Counted from the first letter of the stretch, positions 8,361-60,660 are shown. The stretch is 64,000 bases of DNA from Verrucomicrobia bacterium CG1_02_43_26 (GCA_001872735.1 MNWT01000004.1:32364-96363), one strand, 5' to 3'. Notes: a model not told the origin generated them from the sequence alone. A program made the numbers and translations.

Positions 8361-8369
8361 AAAGGTGCT

Positions 8370-20205: not shown

Positions 20206-20245
20206 CAAAAGTTTGTTTCAGGTGAAACAAACCGCCCTTTTTTAT
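20206..20245 (+). repeat. palindromic GTTTGTTTCAGGTGAAACAAAC element with T-tract (copy 1)
   Basis: AAAAGTTTGTTTCAGGTGAAACAAACCGCCCTTTTTTAT. An inverted copy lies at 31553-31590. Confidence 0.7.
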
Positions 20246-20496
20246 AGCGAATTTATATCGAATCTACCGGAAATATACCAATAAAAAATCCCTCTAAGAA
20301 GCCTCGTATATCAATAAGAAATAACGAACTTAACCAAACAAAATATCCCCCTGAAATAGTGAAATCATTCCAACGAAATCACTAAACTATAGCTAAAATT
20401 AATACGAAAAAAACAGCCCCCTGAGCCACACCTCCAATAGGACGGAAAACGGCATTGCTTTGACAAATCGGTAATTTACATTAAGAATAATAGAAT

Positions 20497-20988
20497 ATGG
20501 ACCACCTACATGCTTATTGGCGCATGGAATACGTTGAAAGCTCTAAACAACCAGATGACAAGAGCTTGTTCACGAACATCTTGGAATCCGGAAACGATAG
20601 AGCGGCGCTCATCCTCTATCGCAGCCAACACGCTTTTCTCATCCTGAACAAATTTCCCTATAACGCCGGCCACCTCATGGCTGTTCCGCTTAAGGAAGTC
20701 CCTACATTGGCCGACCTTAACCTTGAAGAACGCGCCGATTACATGGATATTATCATTAAAGGACAAGAGATCCTCACCAAAGCCCTTTCGCCTAGCGGCT
20801 TTAATATAGGCATGAATATCGGCAGCGCTGCCGGAGCAGGCATACCAGGTCACCTTCATTGCCATATCGTCCCTCGCTGGCAGGGGGATACTAACTTCAT
20901 GCCGGTGGTAGGCAACACACGTGTACTCCCTCAAGCACTGGACACCATGTGGCAGCGTCTTAAACAATTCGCTACCGAAGAGGCCTAA
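20497..20988 (+). CDS. HIT family hydrolase
   Basis: The histidine triad GHLHCHIVPRW and FLILNKFPYNAGHLM. Confidence 0.85.
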   Translation: MDHLHAYWRMEYVESSKQPDDKSLFTNILESGNDRAALILYRSQHAFLILNKFPYNAGHLMAVPLKEVPTLADLNLEERADYMDIIIKGQEILTKALSPSGFNIGMNIGSAAGAGIPGHLHCHIVPRWQGDTNFMPVVGNTRVLPQALDTMWQRLKQFATEEA

Positions 20989-21034
20989 AACCGCTCCCCT
21001 TAACCCTTTTCACGACACGATACCCAACAACTCA

Positions 21035-21997
21035 ATGGAATCAAAAACACTACATTTCGCAAACCCAAGATTACTCTCTCAGCTATATCACAATAATGAG
21101 GCAAACCTCACTCATATCGAAAAAGCATTCAACGTGAGTCTTACAACTCGCGATGATTGGCTCACCATAGAGGGTACCCAAGATGACATCGCCCGTGTCT
21201 CCGAATTATTCGATATCCTGAACCTTGCCCGCGCACAGGGGCTCAATATTAATGACTCCGATTTCGATCACATGCTTATTGGCGTTGTAGAAGGGCGCGC
21301 CCATGAATTCAGGGAAACGTTTGAAAACCCGCTTATTCTCAAAATACGCAACAAAAGCCTGGTCCCAAAAACCATCAACCAAAAGCGCTACCTACAATTC
21401 ATTCAAAAACATGAGATCGTCTTAAGTGTAGGGCCCGCCGGTACCGGCAAAACCTACCTGGCCGTAGCCGCCGCACTCGATGCCCTCCTCAATAAAAAAG
21501 TCGAGAAAATCATCCTAACAAGGCCAGCCGTAGAGGCTGGAGAAGCCCTCGGCTTCCTCCCAGGAGACCTCCAGGAAAAGATCCTCCCCTACCTACGCCC
21601 ACTATACGATGCTATGTACGACATCCTTGGCCCCGAAGACACCGAAAAAATGATGGAAAAGCGTATCATCGAAATCGCACCCCTAGCCTACATGCGTGGC
21701 CGCACCCTCTCCAACGCCTACGTCATCCTAGACGAAGCCCAAAACACCACCTCAGAGCAAATGATGATGTTCCTCACCCGCCTAGGCGACAACAGCCGCA
21801 TGATCGTCACCGGCGACATCACACAAATCGACCTCCCCCTTAAAAACAGATCGGGCCTCAAGCAAGCCATCTCCGTATTAAACAATATACAAGGCATAAA
21901 GATATTTTATTTCGAAAATTCAGACGTCGTAAGACACCCTCTTGTGCAGAAGATAATAGAAGCCTACGAACACTTCTTCAACGACCGCGAACGCTAA
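21035..21997 (+). CDS. phoH: PhoH family ATPase
   Basis: Walker A is GPAGTGKTYLAVA, and ILDEAQNTT is present. The ATG at 21035 (MESKTLHF) avoids overlap with the HIT gene. Confidence 0.9.
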   Translation: MESKTLHFANPRLLSQLYHNNEANLTHIEKAFNVSLTTRDDWLTIEGTQDDIARVSELFDILNLARAQGLNINDSDFDHMLIGVVEGRAHEFRETFENPLILKIRNKSLVPKTINQKRYLQFIQKHEIVLSVGPAGTGKTYLAVAAALDALLNKKVEKIILTRPAVEAGEALGFLPGDLQEKILPYLRPLYDAMYDILGPEDTEKMMEKRIIEIAPLAYMRGRTLSNAYVILDEAQNTTSEQMMMFLTRLGDNSRMIVTGDITQIDLPLKNRSGLKQAISVLNNIQGIKIFYFENSDVVRHPLVQKIIEAYEHFFNDRER

Positions 21998-22017
21998 TTT
22001 ATACTGAATTTAACACG

Positions 22018-24405: not shown

Positions 24406-24880
24406 TATAAATTGCATGAGGGAAGTTTTCATCAATAATCAACATCCTAACCTGAAGTTTGAAGCTGACTCGCTTGAAAAGATTATTGCGCTATTAGACA
24501 GTATTCCCGAGGCTAAAATACCACCAGGGGAGCTTTCCATCGCATTTTTAGAGCGCCCCATCATTATCGAGCTACATAAAAATTTCTTTAATGACCCCAC
24601 GCCAACGGATGTTATGACCTTTACCGGTGATCCTGAGATGGATTTTGCCGGAGAAATTTGCGTTTCACCTGACCAAGCTATGGAAGTGCATAATGACCAC
24701 CGCGTCACATTTCCTTACGAACTCATGCTTTATATCGTGCACGGTTGGCTACACCTGGCGGGCTATAATGACAAAACAACTGAAGATATTCAGCAAATAC
24801 GGCATATGGAAAGCGTGGTGATGCAAAAAATACTTGAATGTGAGGGCTTGCCTGAGTTTGTTTTTTTGGATAACGTATAG
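24398..24880 (+). CDS. ybeY: rRNA maturation endoribonuclease YbeY
   Basis: The HGWLHLAGYND motif is present. The third His of the canonical HGxLHLxGYDH motif appears to be replaced (YND). An alternative start is at 24416. Confidence 0.8.
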   Translation: MFNINCMREVFINNQHPNLKFEADSLEKIIALLDSIPEAKIPPGELSIAFLERPIIIELHKNFFNDPTPTDVMTFTGDPEMDFAGEICVSPDQAMEVHNDHRVTFPYELMLYIVHGWLHLAGYNDKTTEDIQQIRHMESVVMQKILECEGLPEFVFLDNV

Positions 24881-24898
24881 GCTGTTCCATACACTGCC

Positions 24899-25543
24899 AT
24901 GTTTAAATCAATTAGAAGTTCATTTTTCACAGGATTATTAATCCTTCTGCCATTAGCCGCTACGATTTTCGTAGTTAAGTTTTTAATAGAGTCTATTGGG
25001 GCTCCCACAAGTAAATTGATATTCTGGTTTATTGATTCAAGTTTGCGTGACCAAATTTGGTTTGAAGGGATGTTAAGCATTGCTTCGATTATCATTATAG
25101 TCGTTTTCATAGCGATTTTGGGATTATTATCCAAGTACTTCTTAGGGCGCTTAATGATGCAATTAGCTGAAAAGGTAATCACATCCGTACCTTTTGTTAA
25201 GACTGTTTATAATACGGTGAAGCAAATTGTTGACACCTTTAGCCAACAACAAAAGGCGGTTTTTCAAAAAACAGTATTGATCGAATACCCTAGACCCGGG
25301 GTTTATGCTTTAGGCTTTTTAACAAGTACCACAAAAGGCGAAGTACAGCAAAAGACTGGAAAAGTTGTGGTTAATGTGTTCGTGCCAACAACACCTAACC
25401 CGACTAGTGGATTTCTATTGATGCTCCCAGAGGACGAGGTGATCGATTTAGAAATGAGTGTTTCTGATGGCATGAAGGTTGTTATTTCTGGAGGAGCACT
25501 TGTACCAGCTTATAATGCAAAACCGCTTGATATCGGAAGCTAG
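24899..25543 (+). CDS. DUF502 membrane protein
   Basis: SFFTGLLILLPLAATIFVV, two TM helices, and a C-terminal PTTPNPTSGFLLMLP block typical of DUF502. Confidence 0.75.
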   Translation: MFKSIRSSFFTGLLILLPLAATIFVVKFLIESIGAPTSKLIFWFIDSSLRDQIWFEGMLSIASIIIIVVFIAILGLLSKYFLGRLMMQLAEKVITSVPFVKTVYNTVKQIVDTFSQQQKAVFQKTVLIEYPRPGVYALGFLTSTTKGEVQQKTGKVVVNVFVPTTPNPTSGFLLMLPEDEVIDLEMSVSDGMKVVISGGALVPAYNAKPLDIGS

Positions 25544-26164
25544 ATGCAATTTCAGGAATTCAGGGGGTACGTGATCCATAAAGCGCCCTCGGCTTCAGAA
25601 AAGAGTATCAGCCGAATCAGTATCCTTACCGCTGCTCAAGGCATTATATTAGGCTTATTTAGGGAAACCAAAAAATCAAGAGCCAGCTCCAGCATAGACC
25701 TCTTTGATCTTGGGGAAATTGTGGTTAAGACGAGAGGTTCGAACCAAGATACTTTTTTCATTCAAGAGTTTCGGCTAGAAAGGCGGCATAGCGACATCAG
25801 CCGCAACTACGAGGCTTTTACCTACGCATGCTCGCTCTCCAAACTTTTGTACAGAAATAACCTGCACCCTGAGTCTACGGAAGACCTCTTTTTGCTTTGG
25901 GAGAAATCCCTGCAACATCTTTTAAACGGATATGCCCCCAGTGTCGTTTACCTAAAAGCGATTTATCTATTGGTGCAACAAGAGGGTTACCCCGTGAAGG
26001 AAGCCTGGCTTAAACAATTACCCACAAAGCTCAGAGAAAGCACCTGGGCTCTATTAAAGGAGCAGTTGCACGCGAAAGCCGACCGAGAAGATCCCCCCGA
26101 ACACCAAGAATCCATCGAGCGACTACACCAATGGATTCGAAAGGAAACGGCGATTATAATTTAG
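25544..26164 (+). CDS. recO: DNA repair protein RecO (short form)
   Basis: It has an N-terminal OB-like pattern (FRGYVIHKAPSASEKSISRISILTAAQGIILG...) and a helical C-terminal part. It sits downstream of ybeY, as in many genomes. No zinc-finger Cys residues are present. Confidence 0.55.
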   Translation: MQFQEFRGYVIHKAPSASEKSISRISILTAAQGIILGLFRETKKSRASSSIDLFDLGEIVVKTRGSNQDTFFIQEFRLERRHSDISRNYEAFTYACSLSKLLYRNNLHPESTEDLFLLWEKSLQHLLNGYAPSVVYLKAIYLLVQQEGYPVKEAWLKQLPTKLRESTWALLKEQLHAKADREDPPEHQESIERLHQWIRKETAIII

Positions 26165-27123
26165 TCTATCGGAGATTGGAGCACACGTTCTGTATTTGCT
26201 ACAAAACGATCACTTGCAGCCGTTAATGCTTGAAGCATTTCAGCAGTGAGCTCGCAATCGCCCGCTTTGGCACATTCTTTTACTTGTTCCGGCTTACGAC
26301 TGCCGATAATGGTCGTTTGGATGTTCTCTTGGGCAATAACCCAAGCCAAAGCAATTTCAGAAGGATGCCTGCCGAGGTCTTGACCGATGGAAGCCAAGAG
26401 ATCGTACACCTTAGCAACCTCACTTTTGATCGGTTCATCAAAAAAACTGTCATAACGGTTCGTACGGGCAGCGACTTGGCGATCCGTTTCTGTTAATTTT
26501 CGTGCTAAGAAACCTCTGGCCAATGGAGCATATGCCATATAGGTTACCCCTGATTGATGACACAGTTCACGTGTGCGCCCTTCATAAAAGCGACACAGTA
26601 AATTATAAGGTACTTGGTTGATAGAAAAATCCGCGAGCTGATCCCCTAGTAACTCCAAATCTTGCTCATGGAAGTTGGATAAGCCAACAGTCAAAGCCTT
26701 TTTACTTTCCTTCAGGGCAAACATGATATCGCAAAAAAGAGAAGCATTTTGCATAAAATCAGATGGCCAATGAATCAGGTAAAGGTCTACATAGTCGCGA
26801 TTAAGCCTCAAAAGCGTCTCATCTAGGCGCTTTTGATAAGCCTCGAGCGTTAGCTCGGCATCCGGCCAAATTTTTGAAACAATAATAACATCATCTCTTT
26901 TATTTCCCAGAGCCCTTCCTAGACGACGCTCGGATTCACCATCACCATAGCCCTCAGCAGTATCAAATGCGGTTATACCACAATCAACAGCAGTTTTTAT
27001 GACAGTTTCCGCCTCAGTTGCGCTACACTTATCGCCCCAACCAATGCTCGGGGCGAGTTGCCAGCAACCCATCGTAAGAACGCTCCAATCTTTATCTATG
27101 CCTAAGCAACGGGTATATTTCAT
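26161..27123 (-). CDS. aldo/keto reductase
   Basis: FDTAEGYGDGESERRLG, DLYLIHWP and IIGSRKPEQV are typical AKR blocks. Confidence 0.9.
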   Translation of the reverse strand: MKYTRCLGIDKDWSVLTMGCWQLAPSIGWGDKCSATEAETVIKTAVDCGITAFDTAEGYGDGESERRLGRALGNKRDDVIIVSKIWPDAELTLEAYQKRLDETLLRLNRDYVDLYLIHWPSDFMQNASLFCDIMFALKESKKALTVGLSNFHEQDLELLGDQLADFSINQVPYNLLCRFYEGRTRELCHQSGVTYMAYAPLARGFLARKLTETDRQVAARTNRYDSFFDEPIKSEVAKVYDLLASIGQDLGRHPSEIALAWVIAQENIQTTIIGSRKPEQVKECAKAGDCELTAEMLQALTAASDRFVANTERVLQSPID

Positions 27124-27155
27124 AATATCTTTAAACTTACAGGTATTCGCTCTCT

Positions 27156-27455
27156 TTATTTGGACTTTTGGGGCGGTGCCTTATCAACGTCTAGCTTCTT
27201 TTTTTGGTAATAGCCCTTTTCTTTTGGGGAACTGGGGTCCGTGCGAGGAATAGGCCTAAGCTCGGTTCGATCATCTTGAGGATGAGGAAGCGGCGCTAAC
27301 GCATCTGGCTCAAGGTGGCCCGGAGGAGGTGTTGGTTGCTGTTCTCTTGGGTGCGGCCGAGGAGGAGGCACTCTAGCCAATAACGGACAACTAATCGCAA
27401 TCATAGACACGAAAGTAAGGACTAACAGCTTTTTAATAAAAGAAGGGAGGGGCAT
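27156..27455 (-). CDS. small proline-rich secreted protein (hypothetical)
   Basis: A signal-like N-terminus (LLVLTFVSMIAISCPLLA) is followed by a Pro-rich low-complexity region. It lies downstream of the FecR-domain gene. Confidence 0.4.
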   Translation of the reverse strand: MPLPSFIKKLLVLTFVSMIAISCPLLARVPPPRPHPREQQPTPPPGHLEPDALAPLPHPQDDRTELRPIPRTDPSSPKEKGYYQKKKLDVDKAPPQKSK

Positions 27456-27527
27456 CGTTTTTAGTTTAAAAAAGAATATCGGTGCACCACAACATCAAAA
27501 AAGCGAATACAATACGGCATCATTCAA

Positions 27528-28589
27528 TCACTCCGGATCAGCGGGACTGGACACAAATTCGTCCTTATTAACAATGGAATTGTCCACAACACCAGCCTGG
27601 GGGGATGATGCCTCTACTGCCTGAGCCGTTAGTGCCACAACTGTTTGAGTTTCAGCTGAGAGCTGGAAAGCCTTTTGTGTTTTTTGCTCAAGTTGCTGTA
27701 AGTCTTTTTGTGCATTTTTTTGAATTTTAGCAGGTTCCTTAAGTGCCTGTATGGCGGGAATCACGGCGTTAAGTGCTGCAAGAACACCTTGATCCGTGAT
27801 ATTAGCATTACGGATAGCCTCCAATATAATATTCTTATCTGCTTGAGTAATGGGTTCAGTCCTTGATTCGCTTGTTGCTATATTGCCCGATGCCAGATCC
27901 TTGTTACCCAAAGAAGTCGTTTTTGCGCCAACATTAAGCTCGCTAACAATCTTTTCGACTTCTTGCAGACCATCGCTGTTAATAGAAACATTATAGGCAG
28001 TTGACGTAACCGAACCAACCACATTAATGATCTTCATGACGAACGAGCCGGTTGTCGTATCCATCACAAAGGAAACATCTGCGATGGTTCCACGAATACC
28101 AGCAACGCCTGCTTGGGTGGTTATCTTAAATGAAGATTTTTTGCTTAATTTTTTTACATCCGCAAGGAGTTGCCCATAGTTGAGAATCAAATCACTTGTG
28201 GATTCGCTCGGATCTGCGTCAAGAAGTTCAAATTTTCGAGTCGAATCATCAAATGATTCTTGCCTAAAACTCGCAATGGAAAGACTGGTATTACTGGAAA
28301 CAACAAGAGTTGAGCCGTTTGAAAAAACCAAAACACAAGAACCATTATCACCTGTAGTAACCGTATAACCCTCATCTAAAATTTGGCCATTATGCGCGAC
28401 AAGCTTTTGGTCATCAGTACCTTTAAGAGCCGACACATCTCCTTTTACGTTCATAAATTTCACCATCCCTTTTGGGAGCTCTGCAAGAAGTAATTGTCCT
28501 GAGAATAGTAAGGATAAAAATATGAATGAAACGATTTTCGGCAATGGTAATGGCATTTTGGGACGTAGTGGTTCTGTGACAAAACTCAA
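27528..28589 (-). CDS. FecR-domain secreted protein
   Basis: A signal peptide, then GDVSALKGTDDQKLVAHNGQILDEGYTVTTGDNGSCVLVFSNGSTLVVSSNTSLSI, which is a FecR-like fold signature. Confidence 0.6.
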   Translation of the reverse strand: MSFVTEPLRPKMPLPLPKIVSFIFLSLLFSGQLLLAELPKGMVKFMNVKGDVSALKGTDDQKLVAHNGQILDEGYTVTTGDNGSCVLVFSNGSTLVVSSNTSLSIASFRQESFDDSTRKFELLDADPSESTSDLILNYGQLLADVKKLSKKSSFKITTQAGVAGIRGTIADVSFVMDTTTGSFVMKIINVVGSVTSTAYNVSINSDGLQEVEKIVSELNVGAKTTSLGNKDLASGNIATSESRTEPITQADKNIILEAIRNANITDQGVLAALNAVIPAIQALKEPAKIQKNAQKDLQQLEQKTQKAFQLSAETQTVVALTAQAVEASSPQAGVVDNSIVNKDEFVSSPADPE

Positions 28590-42365: not shown

Positions 42366-42602
42366 TTATAGAAAGCGTTTTTTCGCGAATGCTCTACCGG
42401 ACCCAAGTTTGAAGTATTTCTCTAAGGACATGGCTTTTTCTCTTGTTTCTACTGCTATGTAGCTTTTGAGTTTTGCGGGGAGAAGGGCTGCGGTTGCGGG
42501 GACTCTTTTATCGTTGTGAGCTGTGACGCGTTGTTTGAGGTTATTGCTGAAGCCGATGTAAATGGAGTTGTTTGAGAGTTCTAAAAAATAAACGTACCAC
42601 AT
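42366..42602 (-). CDS. GIY-YIG nuclease family protein (UPF0213-like)
   Basis: MWYVYFLELSNNSIYIGFSNNLKQRVTAHN carries the GIY...YIG motif in a 78-aa protein. Confidence 0.8.
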   Translation of the reverse strand: MWYVYFLELSNNSIYIGFSNNLKQRVTAHNDKRVPATAALLPAKLKSYIAVETREKAMSLEKYFKLGSGRAFAKKRFL

Positions 42603-42611
42603 TTTGAGGGG

Positions 42612-42798
42612 AGTTGTTGGGGTCTTTGTGTGTGTGGGGGGGCTTTATTTGTTTTTTTGGCCTTTGGGATTTTTTTTATTCAGGCCGTAGAGCCTGCCTG
42701 CGCTCGTGAGGTTTGATGTTGGGGTTCTTTTTTTGGGCCTTTTATTGTTTTTTTTGGCTTTTGGGATTTTTTTATTCAGGCCGTAGGGCCTGCCTGCG
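42612..42798. repeat. two tandem copies of an ~85-91-nt T-rich unit ending in a short GC hairpin
   Basis: Copy 1 is 42612-42702 and copy 2 is 42714-42798. Both run G(T/A)TGTTGGGG...TTTTGG(C)CTTTTGGGATTTTTTTATTCAGGCCGTAG(A/G)GCCTGCCTGCGC. Confidence 0.85.
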
Positions 42799-42817
42799 CC
42801 AAGGCTTCGGCAGACAC

Positions 42818-42869
42818 TCTTAGCGACTCATCTCGTTACGGGCGGAACGCCCGTATCTCGAAGCGCTAA
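42818..42869. repeat. REP-like imperfect palindromic element (copy 1), abutting the tRNA-Ser 3' end
   Basis: CTTAGCGACTCATCTCGTTACGGGCG-GAA-CGCCCGTATCTCGAAGCGCTAAG. It is homologous to 43811-43864 and shares the terminal GCGCTAAGGTG. Confidence 0.75.
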
Positions 42870-42870
42870 G

Positions 42871-42958
<88 letters not shown>

Positions 42959-43048
42959 CAAGATTTAAGTATTCGAATGTAATTCATTAAATGCGTTGGG
43001 TCAATGGCAAAAAATGGTCCGTAGGGAATTGAAGCTCCTTTCGTTGTA

Positions 43049-43103: not shown

Positions 43104-43643
43104 TTATTCGTGCCTGACGTGAAGCCTTCCAAGGTCAGGAGTCCAAGAACCAAGATCTATTTTTGTCAGATTTTTATTGTCATCAAAGCGCAATATTATT
43201 TTGCCGTTGGCGCCCACCTCATGTGGGGCTCCTTTCTCAGGAACATTCAGAATGGTTTTATCATTTTCCTGCATGAATTTACCCGAGGTAATTTCTTTGT
43301 TTATCTCAGCGATCGAGTAACCTTCGGGAATGGAGGGCACGATTCTCCAACGCGGAACATATATCTGCCCCTTAATGATAATTCTATCAATATCAATTTT
43401 GCGATCTATTGAGACAGGTCCACCTAATGTAATATTTCTTACGATCGGCGCACCTGATTTTGGTATAAATGTAATCTGTAAATCTTTAGATGAAATGTTT
43501 GGAAAGAAAAAAGGAGACCACCCCCCCCAGACATGGAAGTCTACGGTAAAGTTTTCTTTTACGTGAAAGGCGTAACCCCTATCCGCTAGTACCCCTACGA
43601 ATAACCCCAATGCAAATAATGTTAATATTAATCTCTTCATCAT
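43104..43643 (-). CDS. small secreted hypothetical protein
   Basis: It has a signal peptide (MMKRLILTLFALGLFVGVLA). I recognise no family. It shows weak similarity to 49425..49973. Confidence 0.6.
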   Translation of the reverse strand: MMKRLILTLFALGLFVGVLADRGYAFHVKENFTVDFHVWGGWSPFFFPNISSKDLQITFIPKSGAPIVRNITLGGPVSIDRKIDIDRIIIKGQIYVPRWRIVPSIPEGYSIAEINKEITSGKFMQENDKTILNVPEKGAPHEVGANGKIILRFDDNKNLTKIDLGSWTPDLGRLHVRHE

Positions 43644-45662: not shown

Positions 45663-45882
45663 TGTTATCGCTTCCATTTGAAAATTAGTCTTCAAACAAA
45701 CCTACGATTAGGCAAGCAGATAATTGGGGAGTCTACGGAGCGAAAAGGTGCTCACTTTAAGTAGTGCGCAAAAACTAAGCATACAATCCAATAAACCACA
45801 CTATAATAAAATAAAAATAATTCATAAATTTGACCCAAACAATAACTTATGCGATAATTAATTATAACAAAAAAGTATCGAT

Positions 45883-48800
45883 ATGAATAACCGTAATATA
45901 GAAAAACGAAAATCGTATGAGATGCCAAAATCCAAATTTCAGCAAACGGTGGAGAAATCTGGGGTATTTAGCAACAACAAGTACGGAAAGATTGAATTCA
46001 AGAGTGGGCAAATTGGGTTTGGATACTATACCAAACGCAATATTGGAAGGAACGTTAAATCCTTCATTAGCTTTGGCTTAGGGAAATCTATTCAAGAACG
46101 CAAAAGTGACTATATAAATAAGATTAAGAGCGGGCAAGAAGACGCAAAAATCTTCGACAAGGAGTCAAAGTTAGATAAGGAGAGCAAAAATACCCTAAGG
46201 TCTGCAGTAGAACAGGTAGCGACGAAGAAGATCTTGTTTGATAATAAAGACAACATCACATCTGATATAACCGCTGAAGATGTTTACGATGAGTATTATG
46301 ATACCTATGGAGCAAAGCATTTAGGTATGGAAGTGGAGGAGTTTCAAAAATTGAAAGAAAAGGTATTGGGCACCGAGCAAGAAGATAATCGGGATGTTAG
46401 CAAGGAAGATCAAGAGGATGGATGGGAACTGATAGAGGAGACGAACATTAATAATTGGGAACTGATAGAGGAGGCGAGCATAAAACAGGGCACTAAAGAA
46501 GACTTGATGCTCATGATAGACACTGCGGAGGAATTTAAATTAGGAAAGAAATTGGGAAAGGAATTGCTGGACACTTATTTAAAAGACAAGGACTCCGATA
46601 AAACTTTTAAGGGATTTCAGGAATTCACCGAGAAAATGAACCAAGCAGTAAGCGATTTAAACATAAGGAAAGAATGGGGGATCTCTATATTAGAAGCATA
46701 CCTAGACAATAACGAAAATATCAAAGGCGTTGACGGATTTAATAATTTCATAAAAAACCAAGATAACCTAAAATCATTTATAAATAATTTAAAAAATGAG
46801 ATTATCGATGAAGTTAATAACCATGATTTTGAAAAAGCAGAGATAAATGACCTGAAATCGCTGAGTTATTTAGAAGTGATTGTAAAGTGCGGAAATAAAG
46901 ACCTGCAAAACGCCTTGTTGGGGGCGATTACGGCTGGCTTGGTGGATGATGTTAAGAATATTCATAGCTTAGACTCCGGGGTAAGTCTCAACAAGCGCGG
47001 TTCTTGGCATCAGGGATTAATTCATTACATATTAGGTAATATCAGCGAAGCCACTGATGATGATACGTTAGTAACACTAAACAAATTTTACACAAATACC
47101 CTCACTACAGATCTAGAAAAGGCAAAAGAAGTAATCGCGCTCATTAAGAACGAAGCTACGAAAAATAAAGCACTTCATAGATACGCCAATACAGCAATTG
47201 TGTTTAAGCAGTACGTTTTAGCAGAAGAGGCGCTCAGCAAAACAGAAGTATCTGGTGAGAGAGACGATCTTTATAAAAAACTGGCAGTTCAATATTTGGC
47301 TCTAGAAACACCAGATTACGAGAAGGCCAGCGCCGCCATTGCGAAGATTGACGATACAGATCTAAGAGATTTGCAATACAAGGCTCTCTGTGAGCATTGC
47401 TGTAATCAGAAAATGCCAAACTTTGAAATCGCGAAAAAGGCTATAGACGCCATCGATGACAAAGACACAAAGATGACAGCTTTTAATGTATACGTTAAAA
47501 AATTGGTAGACAATAAGGGATTTAAACTCGCTGAAAAGGCTATAGATGCCATCGTTGACGAAGACACACAAAAGAAGGTTTCCAATGAATATGCTAAAAA
47601 ATTGATAGCAAATAAGGAATCTGAAAAAATTGATAAATTCCTTAAAGACCATGAGCTCAGCGATCAATCCATATATAGAAATGCAATTAATTTATACTTG
47701 GAAGAAGAGTACCTAAATAAATGCGAAAATGAAGATTCACTTAAGGAGCATATTGAGAACAAAATCGACCCTCTTTTAAAGAACATTTCGGATAAAAAAT
47801 TGACCAATGAGATAAAAGATATAATCGCAGAAAAATTGATTACTTTTTGCTACAAAAAGGGCTTCACAAAAACACTCTACGATTACCTTTCATCTACAGG
47901 AAGTAAGATTAAGGGTAATTTTAGAGAGAACCTTATTAAGGATATCAATAACACACTAAAAGAGGGCAAGATCGATAACGCACAACTGAACCTCTTAATC
48001 GCCATTGATAAAAATGGCTTTAAGGAGTTAACTATTTCTGAAAATCAAATAAAAGAACATTTTTTTGGAAAACTTCAGGGAAGCACCAAAAGTAAAAAAG
48101 GGGATGAAGCGAAATTTTATTTTAATGTTTATGAGAAATTAACTCAGGCAACAACGGAAGAAATTTTGATCGAGCTACTAACGAGCGATCAAAGACTTAC
48201 AATAGAAACGTGTATAACACTATTTGGGCTAAACAAGAACGAAGCGAATTTTTATTATGCCAAACATTTGATAGACCGGCTTAGCTCGAATGCGCTAGAC
48301 GTGCCAATAATAATAGTCGATTTATTAAAGAACAACTCATACGACACAGACCAAATGCTGAGTAAAGAAGTCGCTGCTCTATATGGCGGGCTTTTCTTCA
48401 ATGTAGACATGAAAGACGATGAACGCACCTGGCAAAATTGCGCAAAGCAAATTATAGCCCTTCAGCAGTTTGATGAAATCAATAAACTCATCAACCGCTT
48501 GGAATCAGATGAAGATAAAAACAGACTTACTAAAATTGATTATTTGCTAAGCTTATTGGACAAAGAAAGTAAAAACCCAAAGGCGGCCTTGGTATTGATA
48601 AACGCCTATTGTTTACTGGCAAAAGAGAAGCCTGAATACCTTGATAAGGCTATTGCGCTCGTGAATGACAACAAAACGCCCGTTTCGATGGAACTTATCA
48701 CTATTTTATACGAAAAAATCAAGGATCTGGACAAATTCAAGAATGATAAGAAGTATATTAATGAGTATCAAAAAGATGTGGAGCGCTTTATTGAAATGGC

Positions 48801-49206
48801 TGGCAAAGTCGATAAAAAAGAGACCAATGATGTTAAGAATGTTAGTGTCATGTTTTCATCCTTCTTTTTGCAGCTTTCATTCAAAAGCAAAAAGGATTTC
48901 CAATTTGCTAACGCGATAGCGAGTATCCCAACCCTAATCACTAAGATGCAAGAAGCCGAAATAACAGAAGGTAAAAGCTGGCGATATATGCTATTCCAGG
49001 ATTTATTTCTTACCTACGCAGAAAAAACACTACGGAGCAGTCAAGCCGAGAAAGCACTGGAAAAACTTGCCCCAAAGGAACTGCAGGGGGAATACAAAGA
49101 GCTGATCATGAAAAATTTAGGGCGTAACCCCAGCAAAAAGATCAAAACTTACTATAAAACTTTTTTTGGAACTTCGTTTGATGAGGATTCAAAGAAAAAT
49201 AATTAG
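45883..49206 (+). CDS. 1107-aa helical-repeat protein carrying the same N-terminal module as 32818..35625
   Basis: GLGKSIQERKSDYINKI, SDITAEDVYDEYYDTYGAKHLGMEVEEFQKLKEKVLG and LMLMIDTAEEFKLGKKLGKELLDTYL align with the N-terminus of 32818..35625. The centre has ~35-aa helical repeats (A.KAIDAI.D.DT...). The sequence is AT-rich and K/E/N-rich, with no signal peptide. Confidence 0.8.
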   Translation: MNNRNIEKRKSYEMPKSKFQQTVEKSGVFSNNKYGKIEFKSGQIGFGYYTKRNIGRNVKSFISFGLGKSIQERKSDYINKIKSGQEDAKIFDKESKLDKESKNTLRSAVEQVATKKILFDNKDNITSDITAEDVYDEYYDTYGAKHLGMEVEEFQKLKEKVLGTEQEDNRDVSKEDQEDGWELIEETNINNWELIEEASIKQGTKEDLMLMIDTAEEFKLGKKLGKELLDTYLKDKDSDKTFKGFQEFTEKMNQAVSDLNIRKEWGISILEAYLDNNENIKGVDGFNNFIKNQDNLKSFINNLKNEIIDEVNNHDFEKAEINDLKSLSYLEVIVKCGNKDLQNALLGAITAGLVDDVKNIHSLDSGVSLNKRGSWHQGLIHYILGNISEATDDDTLVTLNKFYTNTLTTDLEKAKEVIALIKNEATKNKALHRYANTAIVFKQYVLAEEALSKTEVSGERDDLYKKLAVQYLALETPDYEKASAAIAKIDDTDLRDLQYKALCEHCCNQKMPNFEIAKKAIDAIDDKDTKMTAFNVYVKKLVDNKGFKLAEKAIDAIVDEDTQKKVSNEYAKKLIANKESEKIDKFLKDHELSDQSIYRNAINLYLEEEYLNKCENEDSLKEHIENKIDPLLKNISDKKLTNEIKDIIAEKLITFCYKKGFTKTLYDYLSSTGSKIKGNFRENLIKDINNTLKEGKIDNAQLNLLIAIDKNGFKELTISENQIKEHFFGKLQGSTKSKKGDEAKFYFNVYEKLTQATTEEILIELLTSDQRLTIETCITLFGLNKNEANFYYAKHLIDRLSSNALDVPIIIVDLLKNNSYDTDQMLSKEVAALYGGLFFNVDMKDDERTWQNCAKQIIALQQFDEINKLINRLESDEDKNRLTKIDYLLSLLDKESKNPKAALVLINAYCLLAKEKPEYLDKAIALVNDNKTPVSMELITILYEKIKDLDKFKNDKKYINEYQKDVERFIEMAGKVDKKETNDVKNVSVMFSSFFLQLSFKSKKDFQFANAIASIPTLITKMQEAEITEGKSWRYMLFQDLFLTYAEKTLRSSQAEKALEKLAPKELQGEYKELIMKNLGRNPSKKIKTYYKTFFGTSFDEDSKKNN

Positions 49207-49286: not shown

Positions 49287-49347
49287 ACGCATCACCATCA
49301 GTCCATCTATAAATAGAATAGACTGATGGTGATGCGTTAGGTCTTTT
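49287..49347 (+). terminator. 17-bp perfect inverted repeat plus T-tract downstream of 45883..49206
   Basis: ACGCATCACCATCAGTC-(17 nt)-GACTGATGGTGATGCGT, then TAGGTCTTTT. Confidence 0.5.
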
Positions 49348-49349: not shown

Positions 49350-49408
49350 AAAAAAGTTCGGCCTGAGAAGAAAATGCATGTAGCATTCTCGCTTAAGCTT
49401 CTTCTCAG
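49350..49408 (-). terminator. candidate terminator of 49425..49973
   Basis: The minus strand reads CTGAGAAGAA-(26 nt with an inner hairpin)-TTCTTCTCAG, then GCCGAACTTTTTT. Confidence 0.45.
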
Positions 49409-49424: not shown

Positions 49425-49973
49425 TTATCGAGTGCGGTATGTTAATTTATCCAGCCCATCGAAGTCTGTATCAATACGAATATTTGTTATACTAGCGGAA
49501 CCATCAATCGTGAGCACGATGGTAACTTCGCCCACTGCCTTTCCGGATTCATCGAGCAATTTGGCCTTAACCGGTTGCCTAAATAGGTCGCTTTTTAGGG
49601 TAACTGTTTCAATTTTACCAGTTGCGGTACCCATATAAACCCTTTCACGATCGGGGCCCATGAGATATTTATCCACGGTAAACGCGCAAGCTAGTACAAT
49701 TTCAGAAAGATTCTTGATTGCATCCGGTCCGAGGACTACTTCCTGGTTTACGGTGCCCCTGAAAGCCTTGACAACATCAGAACCCTCGCCGGGTACCGGT
49801 TTCAATGTGAGCACTAGGTCATTAAAGTTGACGTTTGTAAACCGTTCCCCCCAATTACTCAGGACACGAAACTCGGTAGTAAATTTATCGATACCGTAGG
49901 CTAAGCCTACCCCAACCTGAAGCGCAAGGAATACCCCCACGAAAGCCATCAAAATACTTGCTTTTTTTAACAT
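49425..49973 (-). CDS. small secreted hypothetical protein
   Basis: It has a signal peptide (MLKKASILMAFVGVFLALQVGVGLA). The KFTTEFRVLSNW...DLVLTL block resembles NFTVDFHVWGGW...DLQITF of 43104..43643. Confidence 0.6.
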   Translation of the reverse strand: MLKKASILMAFVGVFLALQVGVGLAYGIDKFTTEFRVLSNWGERFTNVNFNDLVLTLKPVPGEGSDVVKAFRGTVNQEVVLGPDAIKNLSEIVLACAFTVDKYLMGPDRERVYMGTATGKIETVTLKSDLFRQPVKAKLLDESGKAVGEVTIVLTIDGSASITNIRIDTDFDGLDKLTYRTR

Positions 49974-50234: not shown

Positions 50235-51047
50235 ATGAGATCACGTTTTATCCCTTATTTATTTTTCTTTGTTACCCAAGCATCCGTCCTAACGAGCTTG
50301 GTTTCGGCATCTCTTATTAATGAGGAAGCGCCCGCGAGAACGGATACCCTTTCGCAAAAACTGATTAATAATTATTTTATGGCGATAGGGGGGTTGGATC
50401 GGTTTCTGACGATATACTCGATACAAAAAGACGGTATCTTGAAAGAAGGCAAAAACGTCTATATGATAAGCCAATGGCAACTGGAGCCGAATTATTTTCT
50501 TGAGGAAAGGACGTTAAACAAAGGCAACACCAAGACGGAGATCTTAAAAGGCTATAACGGAACCGTTGCCTGGACATATGAGCCGACAGAGAAAACAGCA
50601 CTCCCCGTTGTTTTAAAAGCAGAGGAACGTGAAGAACTGCTACGCAATGCTGATTTTTACGGATCCTTTTACGAGCATAGCCAACGAGGGATTATTTTCG
50701 AGTATCGCGGTACCGCAACCTCTAAAGGCAGAAAGCAGTATCTTGTAAAAGGATATTTCCCGGATAAACAGGCCGTGTATTACTATTTTGATGCCAAGAC
50801 GTTTTTAGTGACCCGCCTTGGAACAACTCGAATGATCCAAGGCAATAGGGTTGAGCACGATCTTTATATTGACCAATATTACCTTGTAAACGGGATATGG
50901 ATGCCCAAAAAGATTTCCTATGGTTACGGCAAAGAAATCTATGGGGAACTGACTTGGAGTGATTTCGAGGTCAATACGGAAATGGACAAAAGTATTTTTA
51001 ATCTTCCCGAACCAAACGAAATTTGGCTAAGATCTAAAGCCAAATGA
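50235..51047 (+). CDS. secreted hypothetical protein (possibly LolA-like fold)
   Basis: It has a signal peptide, and the pattern LINNYFMAIGGLDRF...GYNGTVAWTYEP is reminiscent of lipoprotein-sorting-like proteins. Its stop overlaps the next start (ATGA). Confidence 0.45.
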   Translation: MRSRFIPYLFFFVTQASVLTSLVSASLINEEAPARTDTLSQKLINNYFMAIGGLDRFLTIYSIQKDGILKEGKNVYMISQWQLEPNYFLEERTLNKGNTKTEILKGYNGTVAWTYEPTEKTALPVVLKAEEREELLRNADFYGSFYEHSQRGIIFEYRGTATSKGRKQYLVKGYFPDKQAVYYYFDAKTFLVTRLGTTRMIQGNRVEHDLYIDQYYLVNGIWMPKKISYGYGKEIYGELTWSDFEVNTEMDKSIFNLPEPNEIWLRSKAK

Positions 51048-56245: not shown

Positions 56246-57171
56246 TTTTTGGCCTCCTGTATGCCCGCCTCACGAATACGCTCCTTTAGAGCGTTATCGG
56301 TTAAGATTGCCTCCAGTGCCTTAACAAACTGATCAACATCACCATCGGGCACAACGAGAGCTGTTTTATTATCATGCATATATTGCCCAGCCCCACCACC
56401 GGTGCAACCGACAACGGCGCAACCGCACGCCATGGCCTCTAAAGGCGGGAGCGAGAAGCCCTCCGGGAAAGCCGTAGCCATGAAGACATCGGTACGCTGG
56501 AATTGCTCGATCAATTCATGTTGTTTATAAACGGCATCTAGCCCTAAGATATTGACCCGATTTTTAATTTCCGGGTTTAATTTACCAACGACCCTATTTG
56601 CCAAATCAGCATTTTTAAAATTCAAGAAAATGACTCGATTGACCTCCCTGATAGCGGGGTCTGGTTTAAAAGCAGAGAGATCAATGCCATTCATTACTAA
56701 AAACTTAGGCAATGCGGAATAGTGTGTCGTTTCCTGCAACAATAAGTCTGAAATGCATAATATATGAGTATAGCCCAAAGCTTGAAAGTCAGGGGGATTA
56801 CCTAATCTTTGCTGCACCAAAGATATTCTTGTTTTACATTTAAATTGGCTGACCACGTACGGCATCATTTCGGGAATGATGACAATGTCCTCCTCGCGCA
56901 TTATCTTGAGTGCCTGTTTAAGCGTAATGTGGGGGGTAGCGTGCTCATGATACCCTACGGTAAAGTTTCCCGCGTGAACGGGAAACGCTTGATAACCCTG
57001 TTTGTTTAAAAAATCGCAATGCTGAAGAATAATTTTAACGCCACCTGTAGGAGGAAGCACCCTGCGCTTCAGGTACTTTCTAAAATAATAACGCAAACGA
57101 GATTCCCCTGCTTTACGGAATATATAAGGTGGAGGAATGATATAAAAGAAACGATGCGCTAGCCGACCCAC
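56170..57171 (-). CDS. glycosyltransferase family 1 (GT-B)
   Basis: The C-terminal EGFSLPPLEAMACGCAVVGCTGGGAGQYM is an E-x7-E type motif. The gene has a GTG start and overlaps the pyrC 3' end convergently by 76 nt. Confidence 0.75.
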   Translation of the reverse strand: MGRLAHRFFYIIPPPYIFRKAGESRLRYYFRKYLKRRVLPPTGGVKIILQHCDFLNKQGYQAFPVHAGNFTVGYHEHATPHITLKQALKIMREEDIVIIPEMMPYVVSQFKCKTRISLVQQRLGNPPDFQALGYTHILCISDLLLQETTHYSALPKFLVMNGIDLSAFKPDPAIREVNRVIFLNFKNADLANRVVGKLNPEIKNRVNILGLDAVYKQHELIEQFQRTDVFMATAFPEGFSLPPLEAMACGCAVVGCTGGGAGQYMHDNKTALVVPDGDVDQFVKALEAILTDNALKERIREAGIQEAKNYSVDRMERELLVFAEKICAEASSS

Positions 57172-59432
57172 TTTTTATATTTATTCGTAAGTTTGCCTAT
57201 TTTTTTGCGAACAGCAGCAACTTGCTCTTTCTCAAGGAAAGATTGTACCAAGGTCTTAGAATGCTTGCGGTATGCTTTAGAAATCTTCAGAACCTGACTC
57301 TGAATGTTTTTCATAACAATCCGAGAGACAAGCGGCTTTGAGAAATTCAAGACTGCGGTCATTGCCGGGATTTCTGAATTATAGATCAGTTCCATGGTTT
57401 GCCTTAAGTCGCTATAAAGCGTAACATCCTCGTGTATGACTAATACCGTGATATCGGCTTGAAGCGCTAAGTACTGTGTTAATGGCCGTTCCAATATGGT
57501 ACCGGAATCAATAAAGATGAAATCGTAGACACCCTTAGCAGATGCGATCATATGAGCCAACTCTCGATATTGAGCGTTGTTCCATGTTATTTTACGAAAA
57601 ACAGCAACGTCTATTTTTCTTTCCGGATCAAACAAGATACAATCTTCCCAACCGACCTCTCCTCGGATATAATTTTCCAAATAATAATCCGGCGGATTAA
57701 GGTTAAGCAACCTACCGATGGACGGATGTAAATTATCAGCTTCGATTAACAAAACCCGAGGACAAAAATTCGTCATTGCGTGGGCAACGTTAATGATCGT
57801 TTCCGTAACGCCACTACCACGCTCAAGCCCAGTGAATATGGCGCATTTACTACCATGTACTTTTCGCTCCTTATCCAAACGGATGGCCAAACGCCTTAAA
57901 GAGGACACGGTAGGGTGAATAGGAATATCTAAAGTTGCACGTACGTAAGGTTTTTCAGAGGAACGCAAATCGTATTCAACAATGGGATCCGGAGCAATTC
58001 TGCCCAAGGCGCGGTTCAGTTCAACGCTCCTACGGATACGGTCATCCATAACATCATATACAAAAACAGGGAAACCGACTATGCCAAACGCAAAGACAAA
58101 ACAGACCGCAAGGATCTTTCTAAAACTTGTCCTAGCAGGGAAATAAGGTGCCCTGGCTTTGGATTCAATCGAGATACGCGCAGGTGCTTTAGAATCGGCA
58201 TATAAGTCTTGAATTTTGCTCTCCAGTGGAACAATTCTCTCTCTCAGATCCTTAACCTCTGCCTCCATACGCGTTCCCTCGCGCATTTTTCCGGAAGTAT
58301 CTCTTGTCTGCGCGCGTACCTCTTCTAACGAAGCATGCATCGTTTCCTCCGCGGAAACCGCTGCTTTATACTTAGCTTCAGATTCGATGAGCATCTTCTT
58401 CAGATCATAATCACGTTGCTCTCGGATAATTTTACGATCCCTTGCCGTAACATTCTCAAGGTGGTTTTTCAGATAGTTTTGCATGCTCTCCATGCGCTCT
58501 TCAACAAACTTGCGATCAGGATTTTCTTTAGCAATACCATGGATAGAAGCGCGCATATCCTGCATCATCTGATAGGTCCAAAATTGTATTGACCATATTG
58601 ATTCGTCACGGGCAACCATCTCATCTGCAGCCGCATCTGGTGATAGTTTTTCCACAGCCGTAACAATTTCAATCGCAGACCTGTAGTCGGCTTCGGCATT
58701 GAAGCGAGCGGCACTAATCATGGCATAGGACTCCTCGAGGGAAGAAAGCCTGTCATAATACATATTAAACTGCTCGCTAAAAGAGCTACTACCGGTTTCT
58801 TTAACAAGTTGATAAAGTTTTTTCTCCCTTTCGATTAACGCTTCGGCAAGTTCCTTTTGTTTTCCAAGCAAGTAAGCAAAGCGCCTGGAGTTAAGCTGCT
58901 CCTGATCGTCTCTTTGCTTATTGATGTAGACCTCCATGATCTGATTAATCATTTCAGCTATACCCTCGGGCTCAAGGGATTCCATACTTAGGCGAATAAG
59001 ATGGGTTCCGTCAACATGAGCTACCAAAAAATTTCTTTGTAAAATCGTAATATTAGTCTCTATCGGTAAAGCTGGGTCGAGAAAGGTAGGCCACTCGTTT
59101 TCAGGTAGCTCTAATAAAGCGGCTTTAAGGGTATCATATGATTGGATGATTCTGGCCTGGGTACTTGCGTAATCATCAAAATAATTTGAAATAGACATAG
59201 GGTCTGTTTCCCCACTCACGGAAGAAACAACACGAGCGATTTGCAAAAAGCCCTCTGATTCGTAGTAAGTTTTACTGAGAATAAGGGCAAACGGAAGCAA
59301 TAAAATAAAAAGGAGAAGACCAACGATAGAAACGGGTATAGTTCGCTTTAATACAAAGTAAAAAATATCGAACCCCTTTTTAGGATTACCAGCAAGATTG
59401 CTTTCAAATTCTGGATTTTCTGTATTATTCAT
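57159..59432 (-). CDS. Wzc/GumC-like polysaccharide co-polymerase with a degenerate BY-kinase-like C-terminal domain
   Basis: It has an N-terminal TM helix, a long coiled periplasmic region, a second TM helix (ILAVCFVFAFGIVGFPVFVY), then a P-loop-like domain. That domain has VLLIEAD and DFIFIDSG, but its Walker A reads GLERGSGVTET, with no Lys. Confidence 0.75.
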   Translation of the reverse strand: MNNTENPEFESNLAGNPKKGFDIFYFVLKRTIPVSIVGLLLFILLLPFALILSKTYYESEGFLQIARVVSSVSGETDPMSISNYFDDYASTQARIIQSYDTLKAALLELPENEWPTFLDPALPIETNITILQRNFLVAHVDGTHLIRLSMESLEPEGIAEMINQIMEVYINKQRDDQEQLNSRRFAYLLGKQKELAEALIEREKKLYQLVKETGSSSFSEQFNMYYDRLSSLEESYAMISAARFNAEADYRSAIEIVTAVEKLSPDAAADEMVARDESIWSIQFWTYQMMQDMRASIHGIAKENPDRKFVEERMESMQNYLKNHLENVTARDRKIIREQRDYDLKKMLIESEAKYKAAVSAEETMHASLEEVRAQTRDTSGKMREGTRMEAEVKDLRERIVPLESKIQDLYADSKAPARISIESKARAPYFPARTSFRKILAVCFVFAFGIVGFPVFVYDVMDDRIRRSVELNRALGRIAPDPIVEYDLRSSEKPYVRATLDIPIHPTVSSLRRLAIRLDKERKVHGSKCAIFTGLERGSGVTETIINVAHAMTNFCPRVLLIEADNLHPSIGRLLNLNPPDYYLENYIRGEVGWEDCILFDPERKIDVAVFRKITWNNAQYRELAHMIASAKGVYDFIFIDSGTILERPLTQYLALQADITVLVIHEDVTLYSDLRQTMELIYNSEIPAMTAVLNFSKPLVSRIVMKNIQSQVLKISKAYRKHSKTLVQSFLEKEQVAAVRKKIGKLTNKYKKWVG

Positions 59433-59493
59433 CCGATTTTAGCGGGGCAATTTTCTATAGTGTAGCAAGAAGTATAAGCTTTTCAACACAATA

Positions 59494-60660
59494 CTAATTA
59501 CTACCATTAACAAATCCGGTTTGTCCAAACAGTTCTTTTCGAACCTCTTGCATAACGCCAAAATCTTCTGCAATACCTGTTCCGAGGCTTATTAACTGGA
59601 CAGTGGGAGTAACACTTTGAATGAAATAATTCCATTTAGAGAGATCTTGTTGACCAACAAAAATGATGTCGTGATTTCTTAGGATAAAGTTATTGGAAAA
59701 ATTAGCATTAACAAGCAATTCCCGAAGGTCGACATTGCGAACATAACCCTTTCTGTCCTTTTCTCTGACGATATAAACACGACCCGCATCGGCATCTATG
59801 AGAGGTCCACCCGCGAACATCAATGCGTCAAGCAACGTTAATTTTGTCTTTAAACGAACGGCTCCTGGGTTTTTCACTTCACCCATGACATAGACTACTT
59901 CATCCTCACTTTCAGGAATAAAAATAATATCATCATTTTTAATACGCATGTTATAAGCGATATTACCGTTATTTAAAAGCTCACGCAAATCGACCCAGAA
60001 AATGGTATTCTTTCCTCGAACAATTGAGCATTTCGTCAAAAAAGATTCTGTCGCTAAAATAGGCAAACCACCGGCCAACGAAAGCGCCTCCATGAGCGTC
60101 CCTTTACCCGAAAAGCGGACAATACCAGGATTAGCAACACGCCCTAACACAAACGCCTTATTATTGTTATAAGTTCTAATTTTTATGACAACCTCTGGAT
60201 CTGTATAGAAAGGCCTTAGTGCTGCTGTCACATTAATCGTAACTTCATCTAACGTAAGGCCGTTAACATTTAAATAACCTGCTCTGGAAACCGATATTGT
60301 ACCATCCGGCGAAACCGTAACATCGTTATCCGAGACCTCTGGCCGTTTCCAAACTTGGATACTCAGGACATCTCCGGGGCCAAATTTGTAGGTATCATCG
60401 ATATCATCACCCGCTTGTTGAATTTCTTTGGGTGTCGTATAATTGACTCTGTCTCCTATTTCGGAGTAAAAGACATCCTTCATCATACGAACGGTTTCAT
60501 CCTGAGGCGCGCTGGAAGCGTACTTACTAAAGTCCTCTTCCTTACCCTCGTTATCGAATACACCTGGCTGCATTTTGGCATAACGTGAGTGGGAGCACCC
60601 CGATAGGAGGGCGACCAAGAACAGGACAAACAGGATATGGGCTTTTTTTATTTTAGGCAT
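59494..60660 (-). CDS. Wza-like polysaccharide export lipoprotein
   Basis: It has the lipobox LLSGCS, the Poly_export block FGPGDVLSIQVW, and repeated SLBB-like segments (GEVKNPG...L.LLDAL..AGG). Confidence 0.85.
   Translation of the reverse strand: MPKIKKAHILFVLFLVALLSGCSHSRYAKMQPGVFDNEGKEEDFSKYASSAPQDETVRMMKDVFYSEIGDRVNYTTPKEIQQAGDDIDDTYKFGPGDVLSIQVWKRPEVSDNDVTVSPDGTISVSRAGYLNVNGLTLDEVTINVTAALRPFYTDPEVVIKIRTYNNNKAFVLGRVANPGIVRFSGKGTLMEALSLAGGLPILATESFLTKCSIVRGKNTIFWVDLRELLNNGNIAYNMRIKNDDIIFIPESEDEVVYVMGEVKNPGAVRLKTKLTLLDALMFAGGPLIDADAGRVYIVREKDRKGYVRNVDLRELLVNANFSNNFILRNHDIIFVGQQDLSKWNYFIQSVTPTVQLISLGTGIAEDFGVMQEVRKELFGQTGFVNGSN

Follow-up and report, generated by a model that had tools for sequence, protein, structure and literature searches.

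What does a protein of 1107 residues and no annotated function do among the housekeeping genes of an uncultured groundwater bacterium? The open reading frame (ORF) that raises this question, here called p1, lies at 45883..49206 (+) in a stretch of 64,000 nucleotides from Verrucomicrobia bacterium CG1_02_43_26 (GCA_001872735.1, MNWT01000004.1:32364-96363), the whole of which is the window analysed here and supplies the positions given throughout. Two further ORFs of the window bear on the answer, p2 at 32818..35625 (+) and p3 at 31724..32539 (+). Protein comparisons supported the view that p1, p2 and p3 are a modular paralog family in which the same N-terminal head is joined to different repeat bodies. 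The function that fits them best, at a probability of roughly one half, is that of lineage-restricted scaffolds for binding, in which a head used for docking or delivery is common to all and the repeat bodies have been exchanged.

An earlier reading made from the sequence alone had placed p1 at these coordinates, aligned the N-terminal part of its product block by block with that of p2, and called p1 a modular, domain-swapped paralog. ORF translation of the window gave 1107 codons without a stop, and all of the peptide blocks quoted in that reading were present in the p1 and p2 translations. BLASTP aligned residues 1-248 of p1 with residues 1-205 of p2 at 35% identity over 249 amino acids (aa; E=3e-25), confirming the proposed alignment, and tblastn of the heads against the whole window recovered the match between the p1 and p2 heads at E=3e-25 to 3e-26. 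A HMMER profile match ran from residue 1 to 262 of p1 and from 1 to 216 of p2; homology to p2 stops at p1 aa 262. No other segment of p1 was significantly similar to p2 by BLASTP, as expected from the claim that the rest of the protein is different. The three related N-termini that had been counted also exist, the third being that of p3, though it matches only the first ~117 residues of the p2 head (tblastn against the window, E=9e-14). The domain-swapped interpretation stood as well, with a body resembling tetratricopeptide repeats (TPR) in p1 and ankyrin (Ank) repeats in p2 and p3.

The ankyrin assignment is firm for p2, in which Pfam recognised Ank_2 at E=3.6e-25. The three Ank-like repeats of p3, each of ~40 aa, fell below the Pfam Ank threshold (E=0.0028), are 43% identical to p2 aa 571-729 and join the head directly. 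From these alignments p3 seems to be a tandem duplicate of its neighbour p2 that has lost an internal part. A common N-terminal module followed by unrelated C-terminal domains, as seen when the body of p1 is set against those of p2 and p3, is an arrangement by which secreted effectors with a common N-terminal translocation domain (T3SS/T4SS) are recognised. Two observations concern the paralogs themselves. On 34 contigs the 271-aa product of p3 is intact. In p2, aa ~570-935 (34500-35625) show by eye ankyrin-like repeats with an unusually long period of ~40 aa (…TPLHWAASNGNLDKVILSL..AG......I..L.SIKD…), which Pfam Ank models match in short stretches only.

Table. Coordinates of p1, its parts, its paralogs and the flanking elements in the window (pLDDT, predicted local distance difference test; dG, folding free energy; z, score against shuffled sequence; HMM, hidden Markov model; i-E, independent E-value; TRF, Tandem Repeats Finder; AF2, AlphaFold2).
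Feature	Position	Strand	Evidence
p1 coding sequence, 1107 aa	45883..49206	+	NCBI OIO60896.1 / PIP59232.1, 'hypothetical protein'
p1 head aa 1-60, basic polar N-terminus	45883..46062	+	charge pattern, low-confidence prediction
p1 head core A, aa 65-162, helical; G-x-GKSI-x-ERK-x-DY and SDIT...YGAKHLG blocks	46075..46368	+	alignments; pLDDT ~80-88
p1 acidic linker aa 163-204, predicted disordered	46369..46494	+	pLDDT <50 over aa 165-199
p1 head core B, aa 205-262, helices, LMLMIDTAE..LGK.LG...L..YL	46495..46668	+	BLASTP, profile match, model
p1 TPR-like helix-hairpin repeats, five units, aa 412-590	47116..47652	+	TRF, HMM, P0004 alignment, model
p1 three clear 33-35 aa repeat copies, aa 482-582	47326-47628	+	HMM i-E ~1e-20 each
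p1 remaining all-alpha body, aa 591-1107, degenerate helical hairpins	47653..49203	+	AF2 model, Foldseek
p2, 935 aa: full head (aa 1-216) and ankyrin repeats	32818..35625	+	BLASTP, Pfam, HMMER profile
p3, 271 aa: first ~117 aa of head and three Ank-like repeats	31724..32539	+	tblastn, alignment
Promoter-like site TTGACC-17-GATAAT with TG, 25 nt before ATG	45830..45858	+	10/12 consensus matches
Strong hairpin, 20-nt arms 95% complementary, 81 nt past p1 stop	49287..49337	.	dG -38.8 kcal/mol, z=-8.8
Second weaker hairpin, 10-nt perfect arms	49363..49408	.	dG ~-17 kcal/mol, z=-2.5 both strands

The sequence data show p1 to be a real gene that codes for protein in an uncultured groundwater Verrucomicrobium. 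The exact protein was found on contigs in 48 blocks of a metagenome collection, always in the same gene order, and it is full-length and identical in assemblies of several samples and sources; every member of its 90%-identity cluster is either identical to p1 or a fragment of it. In the NCBI entries the organism is called 'Verrucomicrobia bacterium CG1_02_43_26' or 'CG_4_10_14_3_um_filter_43_23'. Among the names of its metagenome-assembled genomes (MAGs) are a 3-um-filter label and another that is read as a 0.2-um-filter label; the MAG name, used as a literature query, returned no paper. Sampling of the family amounts to one population. The NCBI records begin p1 at Met14, giving 1094 aa. The invariance of M1, N2, S11, S17 and F19 in the alignment of all three paralog N-termini supports a start at the ATG at 45883 rather than at Met14. 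That p1 might be non-functional, either a chance ORF or a decaying pseudogene, is scarcely credible: its missing annotation, the absence of a homologue outside the genome and its low-complexity-like composition would suit such an origin, but 1107 stop-free codons (3.3 kb) in 36% GC DNA, the identical full-length sequence across assemblies, a regular predicted secondary structure and the conservation of the head protein against saturated synonymous change do not.

This conservation also dates the family. Over 216 aligned codons the p1 and p2 heads have 84 identical residues, 48 of them encoded by different codons. The nonsynonymous divergence (dN) is 0.59 and the synonymous divergence (dS) is saturated and undefined under the Nei-Gojobori method (NG86); no nucleotide similarity survives beyond a 24-nt stretch. 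Because synonymous sites are saturated, duplication of the head and exchange of the bodies are old, and the domain shuffling suggested from the sequence, if taken as recent, is not supported. Because residues remain identical despite saturated synonymous change, selection at the protein level must have preserved the head, and this constraint rules out a chance ORF.

The low GC content of p1 raised a further alternative, that it is a recently acquired, horizontally transferred accessory gene. p1 is indeed AT-rich, as had been judged by eye: its GC content is 0.364, whereas the window's 43 other ORFs average 0.452 (sd 2.7%), which gives z=-3.2. Codon position 2 has the largest deficit (0.255 versus 0.375, z=-3.7), position 1 a smaller one (z=-2.6), and GC at the third position (GC3), 0.407 versus 0.467, is near normal at z=-1.0. 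Lysine, glutamate, asparagine and isoleucine together make up 38% of p1 residues versus 24% in the other window ORFs. With the deficit in codon positions 1 and 2 and GC3 near normal, the AT-richness of p1 reflects its amino-acid content and not foreign codon usage, and so fails as the sign of an accessory or foreign gene for which it had been taken. The absence of homologues from other species, both in genomes of the Genome Taxonomy Database (GTDB) and in the exhaustive HMMER search described below, and the possession of its own promoter-like site and 3′ hairpin would also be compatible with recent transfer. However, two paralogs with the same head stand 10-14 kb away at saturated synonymous divergence, and the family is therefore old in the lineage; no donor sequence was found in any of the collections searched; and no integrase or transposase family was found in the called genes within about 10 kb of p1, direct repeats at the ends of p1 not having been searched for; a tRNA gene lies ~3 kb upstream. 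Recent acquisition is accordingly unlikely. Low GC comparable to that of p1 was also seen in the 1-kb windows 8001-9000 (0.374) and 59001-60000 (0.380).

All contigs that carry the identical gene for GTP-dependent phosphoenolpyruvate carboxykinase (PEPCK) and reach past it carry p1, or an ORF fragment, at the p1 position. At 80 PEPCK loci of other species, the best of which encodes a PEPCK 75% identical (relatives in Opitutales and Puniceicoccales), none of p1's neighbours was conserved in the flanks. In the window these neighbours are PEPCK, a DinG-like helicase, hemC and pyrB/pyrC-type genes; the neighbouring ORFs 43104..43643, 49425..49973 and 50235..51047 matched no family, and no adjacent chaperone gene was recognised among them. 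The tRNA gene mentioned above (42875-42959, minus strand) has beside it a stand-alone 78-aa GIY-YIG protein (6484-6720 in L081); at this site (42366-42959), with no integrase nearby, there is no clear island structure.

The sequence-only reading had bracketed p1 with strong terminators on both sides, and this holds for the 3′ side only. The strong hairpin downstream of p1 was matched in stability by 0 of 200 shuffles, sits between convergent genes and is probably a terminator. The weaker hairpin beyond it adjoins the 3′ end of the convergent gene 49425..49973. Interpretation of the 3′ hairpin as a dispersed repeat element was rejected, its sole matches in the window being its own two arms. A terminator upstream of p1 was likewise rejected, as the 5′ intergenic region is without structure (folding z=0.16). 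On its 5′ side p1 is separated from the divergently oriented PEPCK gene by a 187-bp spacer, which forms a promoter region for both genes. The promoter-like site within it is a consensus match only, such sites being no commoner than in shuffled sequence.

The head of p1 comprises a basic, polar N-terminus and two helical cores separated by an acidic linker (Table). Net charge at the N-terminus is +4, +2 and +4 per 20-aa window and about +12 over the first 80 residues; the pattern of a basic N-terminal third and an acidic linker is the same in p1 and p2. No hydrophobic (Sec) signal peptide was found at the p1 N-terminus. AlphaFold2 prediction of the head alone from the three-sequence alignment gave a mean pLDDT of 66 and a predicted TM-score (pTM) of 0.65, with helical parts at ~80-88 and values below 50 at aa 1-12, 32-36 and 54-66 as well as in the linker. 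The G-x-GKS motif of core A was considered as a Walker A motif and rejected. It reads F-G-L-G-K-S in p1, T-G-I-G-K-S in p2 and N-G-A-G-K-F in p3, is non-canonical in having I, N or a gap in place of G/A at position -5, and belongs to a head modelled without beta strands. Neither the head model, which has no beta sheet, nor Pfam, which gave no NTPase match, places p1 among the P-loop NTPases. Two small internal repetitions were noticed in this region: KLGKKLGKEL of p1 (46537-46566) is encoded with a 12-bp period, a small duplication within the head, and a unit L..YL......GF..F appears, by eye and unscored, to occur twice in p1 (46567-46761; aa 228-252 and aa ~269-293) and once in p2.

Behind the head, the body of p1 (~850 aa) is modelled as five TPR-like hairpins followed by a degenerate alpha-solenoid. 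The helical repeats of ~35 aa described from the sequence are real, but they do not form a regular array throughout the body. Tandem Repeats Finder detected a 99-bp period at 47435..47617 (81% match), and an HMM built from three p1 units found three strong copies only, at aa 482-516, 517-549 and 550-582, these being the same three copies from which it was built; self-BLAST did not list the 33-aa repeat. Two degenerate copies upstream of these are visible only through alignment to P0004, a protein described below. In the AlphaFold2 model of full-length p1 (pLDDT 53, reaching 60-84 in parts), only helices are predicted from about aa 205 onwards, and each repeat unit appears, at this low confidence, as a short helix followed by a long one. 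Foldseek comparison of the full model with PDB returned generic TPR/HEAT solenoids (Ski3, Ctr9, karyopherins) at E ~1e-4 and template-modelling (TM) scores of 0.1-0.18, which on this model is a resemblance of class and not of family. Neither p1 nor fragments of it matched any Pfam model of the TPR family at a cutoff as loose as E<=10, Pfam Ank models gave no match to p1, and neither did Pfam HEAT, Sel1 or armadillo models, HEAT being represented by the class-level structural resemblance only (TM 0.1-0.18, pLDDT 53 model). The units were nevertheless tandem hairpins of ~34 aa homologous to recognised TPR arrays, as judged from the alignment with P0004 and P0005 and the low-confidence model.

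Relatives outside the genome were sought by scanning exhaustively with HMMER 1.84 billion cluster representatives, which cover ~15 billion proteins; the query profile combined full-length p1 with the head of p2. Five matches were obtained: two fragments of p1, p2 itself, P0004 (E=9e-8) and P0005 (E=7e-4). The last two match only p1 aa 413-587, that is, the repeat region. P0004 combines a caspase domain and an AAA ATPase with long arrays of 33-aa repeats, P0005 has a NACHT domain with similar arrays, and Pfam assigns the repeats of both to TPR_12, TPR_2 and TPR_19; p1 aa 412-590 aligns in register with these arrays over five units. As for the head, the only relative among the 1.84e9 representatives was the paralog p2, and since p3 itself missed the E<=0.001 threshold of this search, heads as divergent as p3 could escape it. 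A word-indexed protein search with a three-head profile returned only p3. No relative of p1 was found among the GTDB species genomes, and the patterns GKSI[QK]ERK and Y[DI][TD]YGAKH retrieved from metagenome contigs of the Joint Genome Institute (JGI) only the same gene at 100% identity. PDB sequences searched with p1 and the head profile gave nothing meaningful, nor did NCBIfam, applied to p3 and the neighbours only; Pfam at E<=10 on head and body fragments matched no family to p1; and the best Foldseek hits of the head model (E=1.4 in PDB, E=0.86 in BFVD) were not significant fold matches. In the representatives, GTDB and the JGI contigs alike, the family was not conserved elsewhere. p1, p2 and p3 were found only as a three-gene family of one organism in the collections searched. 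By its sequence the head is new, and no known fold could be recognised in it; the architecture of the family is familiar.

The two outside matches suggest another role: p1 would act as a sensor in a conflict system or in anti-phage defence, as the TPR arms of STAND/Avs-type NTPases do, and its head would be the effector domain. P0004 and P0005, caspase- and NACHT-TPR proteins, are the sole non-self matches, and an N-terminal module followed by C-terminal repeats resembles such proteins. The likeness is detailed in the repeats: p1 aa 412-590 keeps register with the 33-aa units (A-E-x-x-I-x-x-I-x-D ... A-L; E=9e-8), and its predicted short-helix/long-helix hairpin fits. However, the similarity is confined to the repeat units, of which p1 has only about five and no Pfam TPR match, and ~520 further residues of its body match nothing. 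p1 moreover lacks the NTPase and caspase parts, its G-x-GKS is not a canonical Walker A and its neighbours are housekeeping genes. PADLOC-DB gave no match to p1 or p3 and only a weak, sub-threshold one to p2 (PDC-M07B, E=9e-5, 20.7 bits). A role as conflict sensor is for these reasons distinctly unlikely.

No recognisable part of p1 is enzyme-like, and p1 is therefore most likely a binding scaffold. In the proposed mechanism all members would depend on the head for the same task, be it attachment to a single partner or compartment or export along a route other than Sec, and the interchangeable solenoid would bind a target specific to each paralog. The linker offers a candidate docking site. 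In p1 it contains two Trp motifs, DGWELI (46417-46434) and NNWELI (46450-46467), and in p2 DEWEAV (33274-33291) occupies the position aligned to the p1 motif, with W181 invariant; the surrounding peptides are EDQEDGWELIEE in p1 and EEDEWEAVT in p2. The strict pattern [DE][DEGSTN]W[DE].[ILV] occurs twice in the 18,603 aa of window ORFs, at precisely the aligned p1 and p2 sites. LC3-interacting region (LIR) motifs, also named AIM (Atg8-family interacting) motifs, are reportedly used by some bacterial effectors, for example Legionella RavZ. DGWELI of p1 and DEWEAV of p2 fit the extended LIR pattern, [W/F/Y]-x-x-[L/I/V] after acidic residues, at an aligned position within an acidic linker predicted to be disordered (pLDDT <50). 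They differ from established LIR motifs in being known by pattern match alone and in having no known eukaryotic partner. From their sequence, the linker motifs could serve in docking as LIR-like or W-acidic peptides; the p1 and p2 linkers are fitted about as well by the 'W-acidic' motif of kinesin light chain, or by a site for docking to a bacterial partner only, as by LIR.

The preferred specific version of the scaffold reading would make p1 an exported 'eukaryote-like repeat protein', acting like an effector on a protist host or predator with the acidic Trp motif as its docking motif. It is put forward tentatively, as a possibility well short of even odds, on the strength of analogies with Ank and TPR proteins, terminal reassortment, the type III secretion system of Verrucomicrobium spinosum and the repeat expansions of Chlamydiae. 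In bacteria associated with hosts, ankyrin and TPR repeats are the classic 'eukaryote-like' modules for binding; the 3-um-filter label among the MAG names also counts in favour of this version. Stavrinides et al. are said to have described, in 2006, how type III effectors undergo 'terminal reassortment'; in Salmonella, the SifA/SseJ/SspH family has a common N-terminal translocation domain of ~140 aa. The term 'terminal reassortment' is used in PMC3136466. Like effectors of this kind, p1, p2 and p3 have a polar N-terminus without a Sec signal and one N-terminal module with unrelated C-termini, and their bodies, TPR-like in p1 and Ank in p2 and p3, are eukaryote-like binding repeats. Unlike them, the p1 family has no sequence similarity to known translocation domains, and its genes lie among housekeeping genes. 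Families combining F-box or BTB domains with repeats have expanded in Parachlamydiaceae (PMC4209131), on a scale that the title of that paper calls 'massive'. The p1 family resembles these in belonging to the Planctomycetes-Verrucomicrobia-Chlamydiae (PVC) group, in being lineage-restricted and in joining one common domain to repeat domains; it differs in having only three members, a head that is no known eukaryotic domain and an organism not known to be intracellular. For Verrucomicrobium spinosum, the abstract of PMC3681970 describes a functional type III system. The most novel form of this idea, in which the head would be an undescribed delivery or host-docking module and W-x-x-[LIV] a working LIR-type or W-acidic motif tethering the TPR-like and ankyrin bodies to eukaryote autophagy or transport machinery, is very unlikely.

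p1 could instead stay in the cytoplasm as a scaffold or adaptor specific to its lineage; its head would dock the three paralogs to one bacterial structure or complex, and the bodies would recruit different bacterial clients. The housekeeping neighbourhood with no secretion genes in it, the lack of a signal peptide and the fixation of p1 on all of the population's contigs that extend to its position agree with this. So does the kinship of its repeats, whose closest relatives in sequence are the TPR arrays of STAND NTPases, cytoplasmic proteins of bacteria. On the other hand, Ank repeats on the paralogs, the lack of an orthologue elsewhere and the K/E/N-rich make-up are more typical of fast-evolving interaction proteins than of core scaffolds, and the acidic Trp motif, conserved within a linker predicted to be disordered, has the look of a peptide for docking, for which a bacterial partner is equally possible. 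A purely cytoplasmic role is a reasonable possibility, if less probable than the scaffold reading with a docking or delivery head.

Several points weigh against the preferred reading, in particular its exported version. No secretion-system or chaperone gene was found in the 64-kb window and its flanks, where the neighbours are housekeeping genes, and the gene content of the window looks like that of a free-living bacterium. This groundwater MAG has no known eukaryotic partner. With the less strict LIR pattern from the literature, the window ORFs give 2.2 matches per 1000 aa, so that the motif alone proves nothing. Confidence in the structure models is low to moderate (pLDDT 53 for the full length, 66 for the head), and with one population only, selection on the bodies has no comparative basis.

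Other features of the window were recorded in passing. Cumulative GC skew reaches a minimum at ~23-25 kb, and genes lie mostly on the minus strand before ~20 kb and on the plus strand at 20.5-35.6 kb; the change of skew and orientation at 20000-28000 looks like a switch of the replication-origin type. No DnaA-box cluster was found near it (22 scattered matches versus 15.5 expected), and no dnaA gene was seen. Two large ORFs, 11493-13466 (657 aa) and 57159-59432 (757 aa), had no Pfam match in the gene tables.

The value of these results is mostly corrective: the AT-richness of p1 is a matter of amino-acid composition, the domain swap is ancient, and the gene belongs to an orphan three-member family of one population. 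The p1 family illustrates the diversification of repeat proteins in which one terminus is kept and the solenoid is exchanged. If the docking-head and LIR interpretation were true, it would reveal a hidden protist-associated lifestyle in an 'environmental' verrucomicrobial lineage. If the head is an export or docking module of any kind, p1, p2 and p3 would represent a new modular repeat-protein family and a hint of contact between a subsurface verrucomicrobium and eukaryotes.

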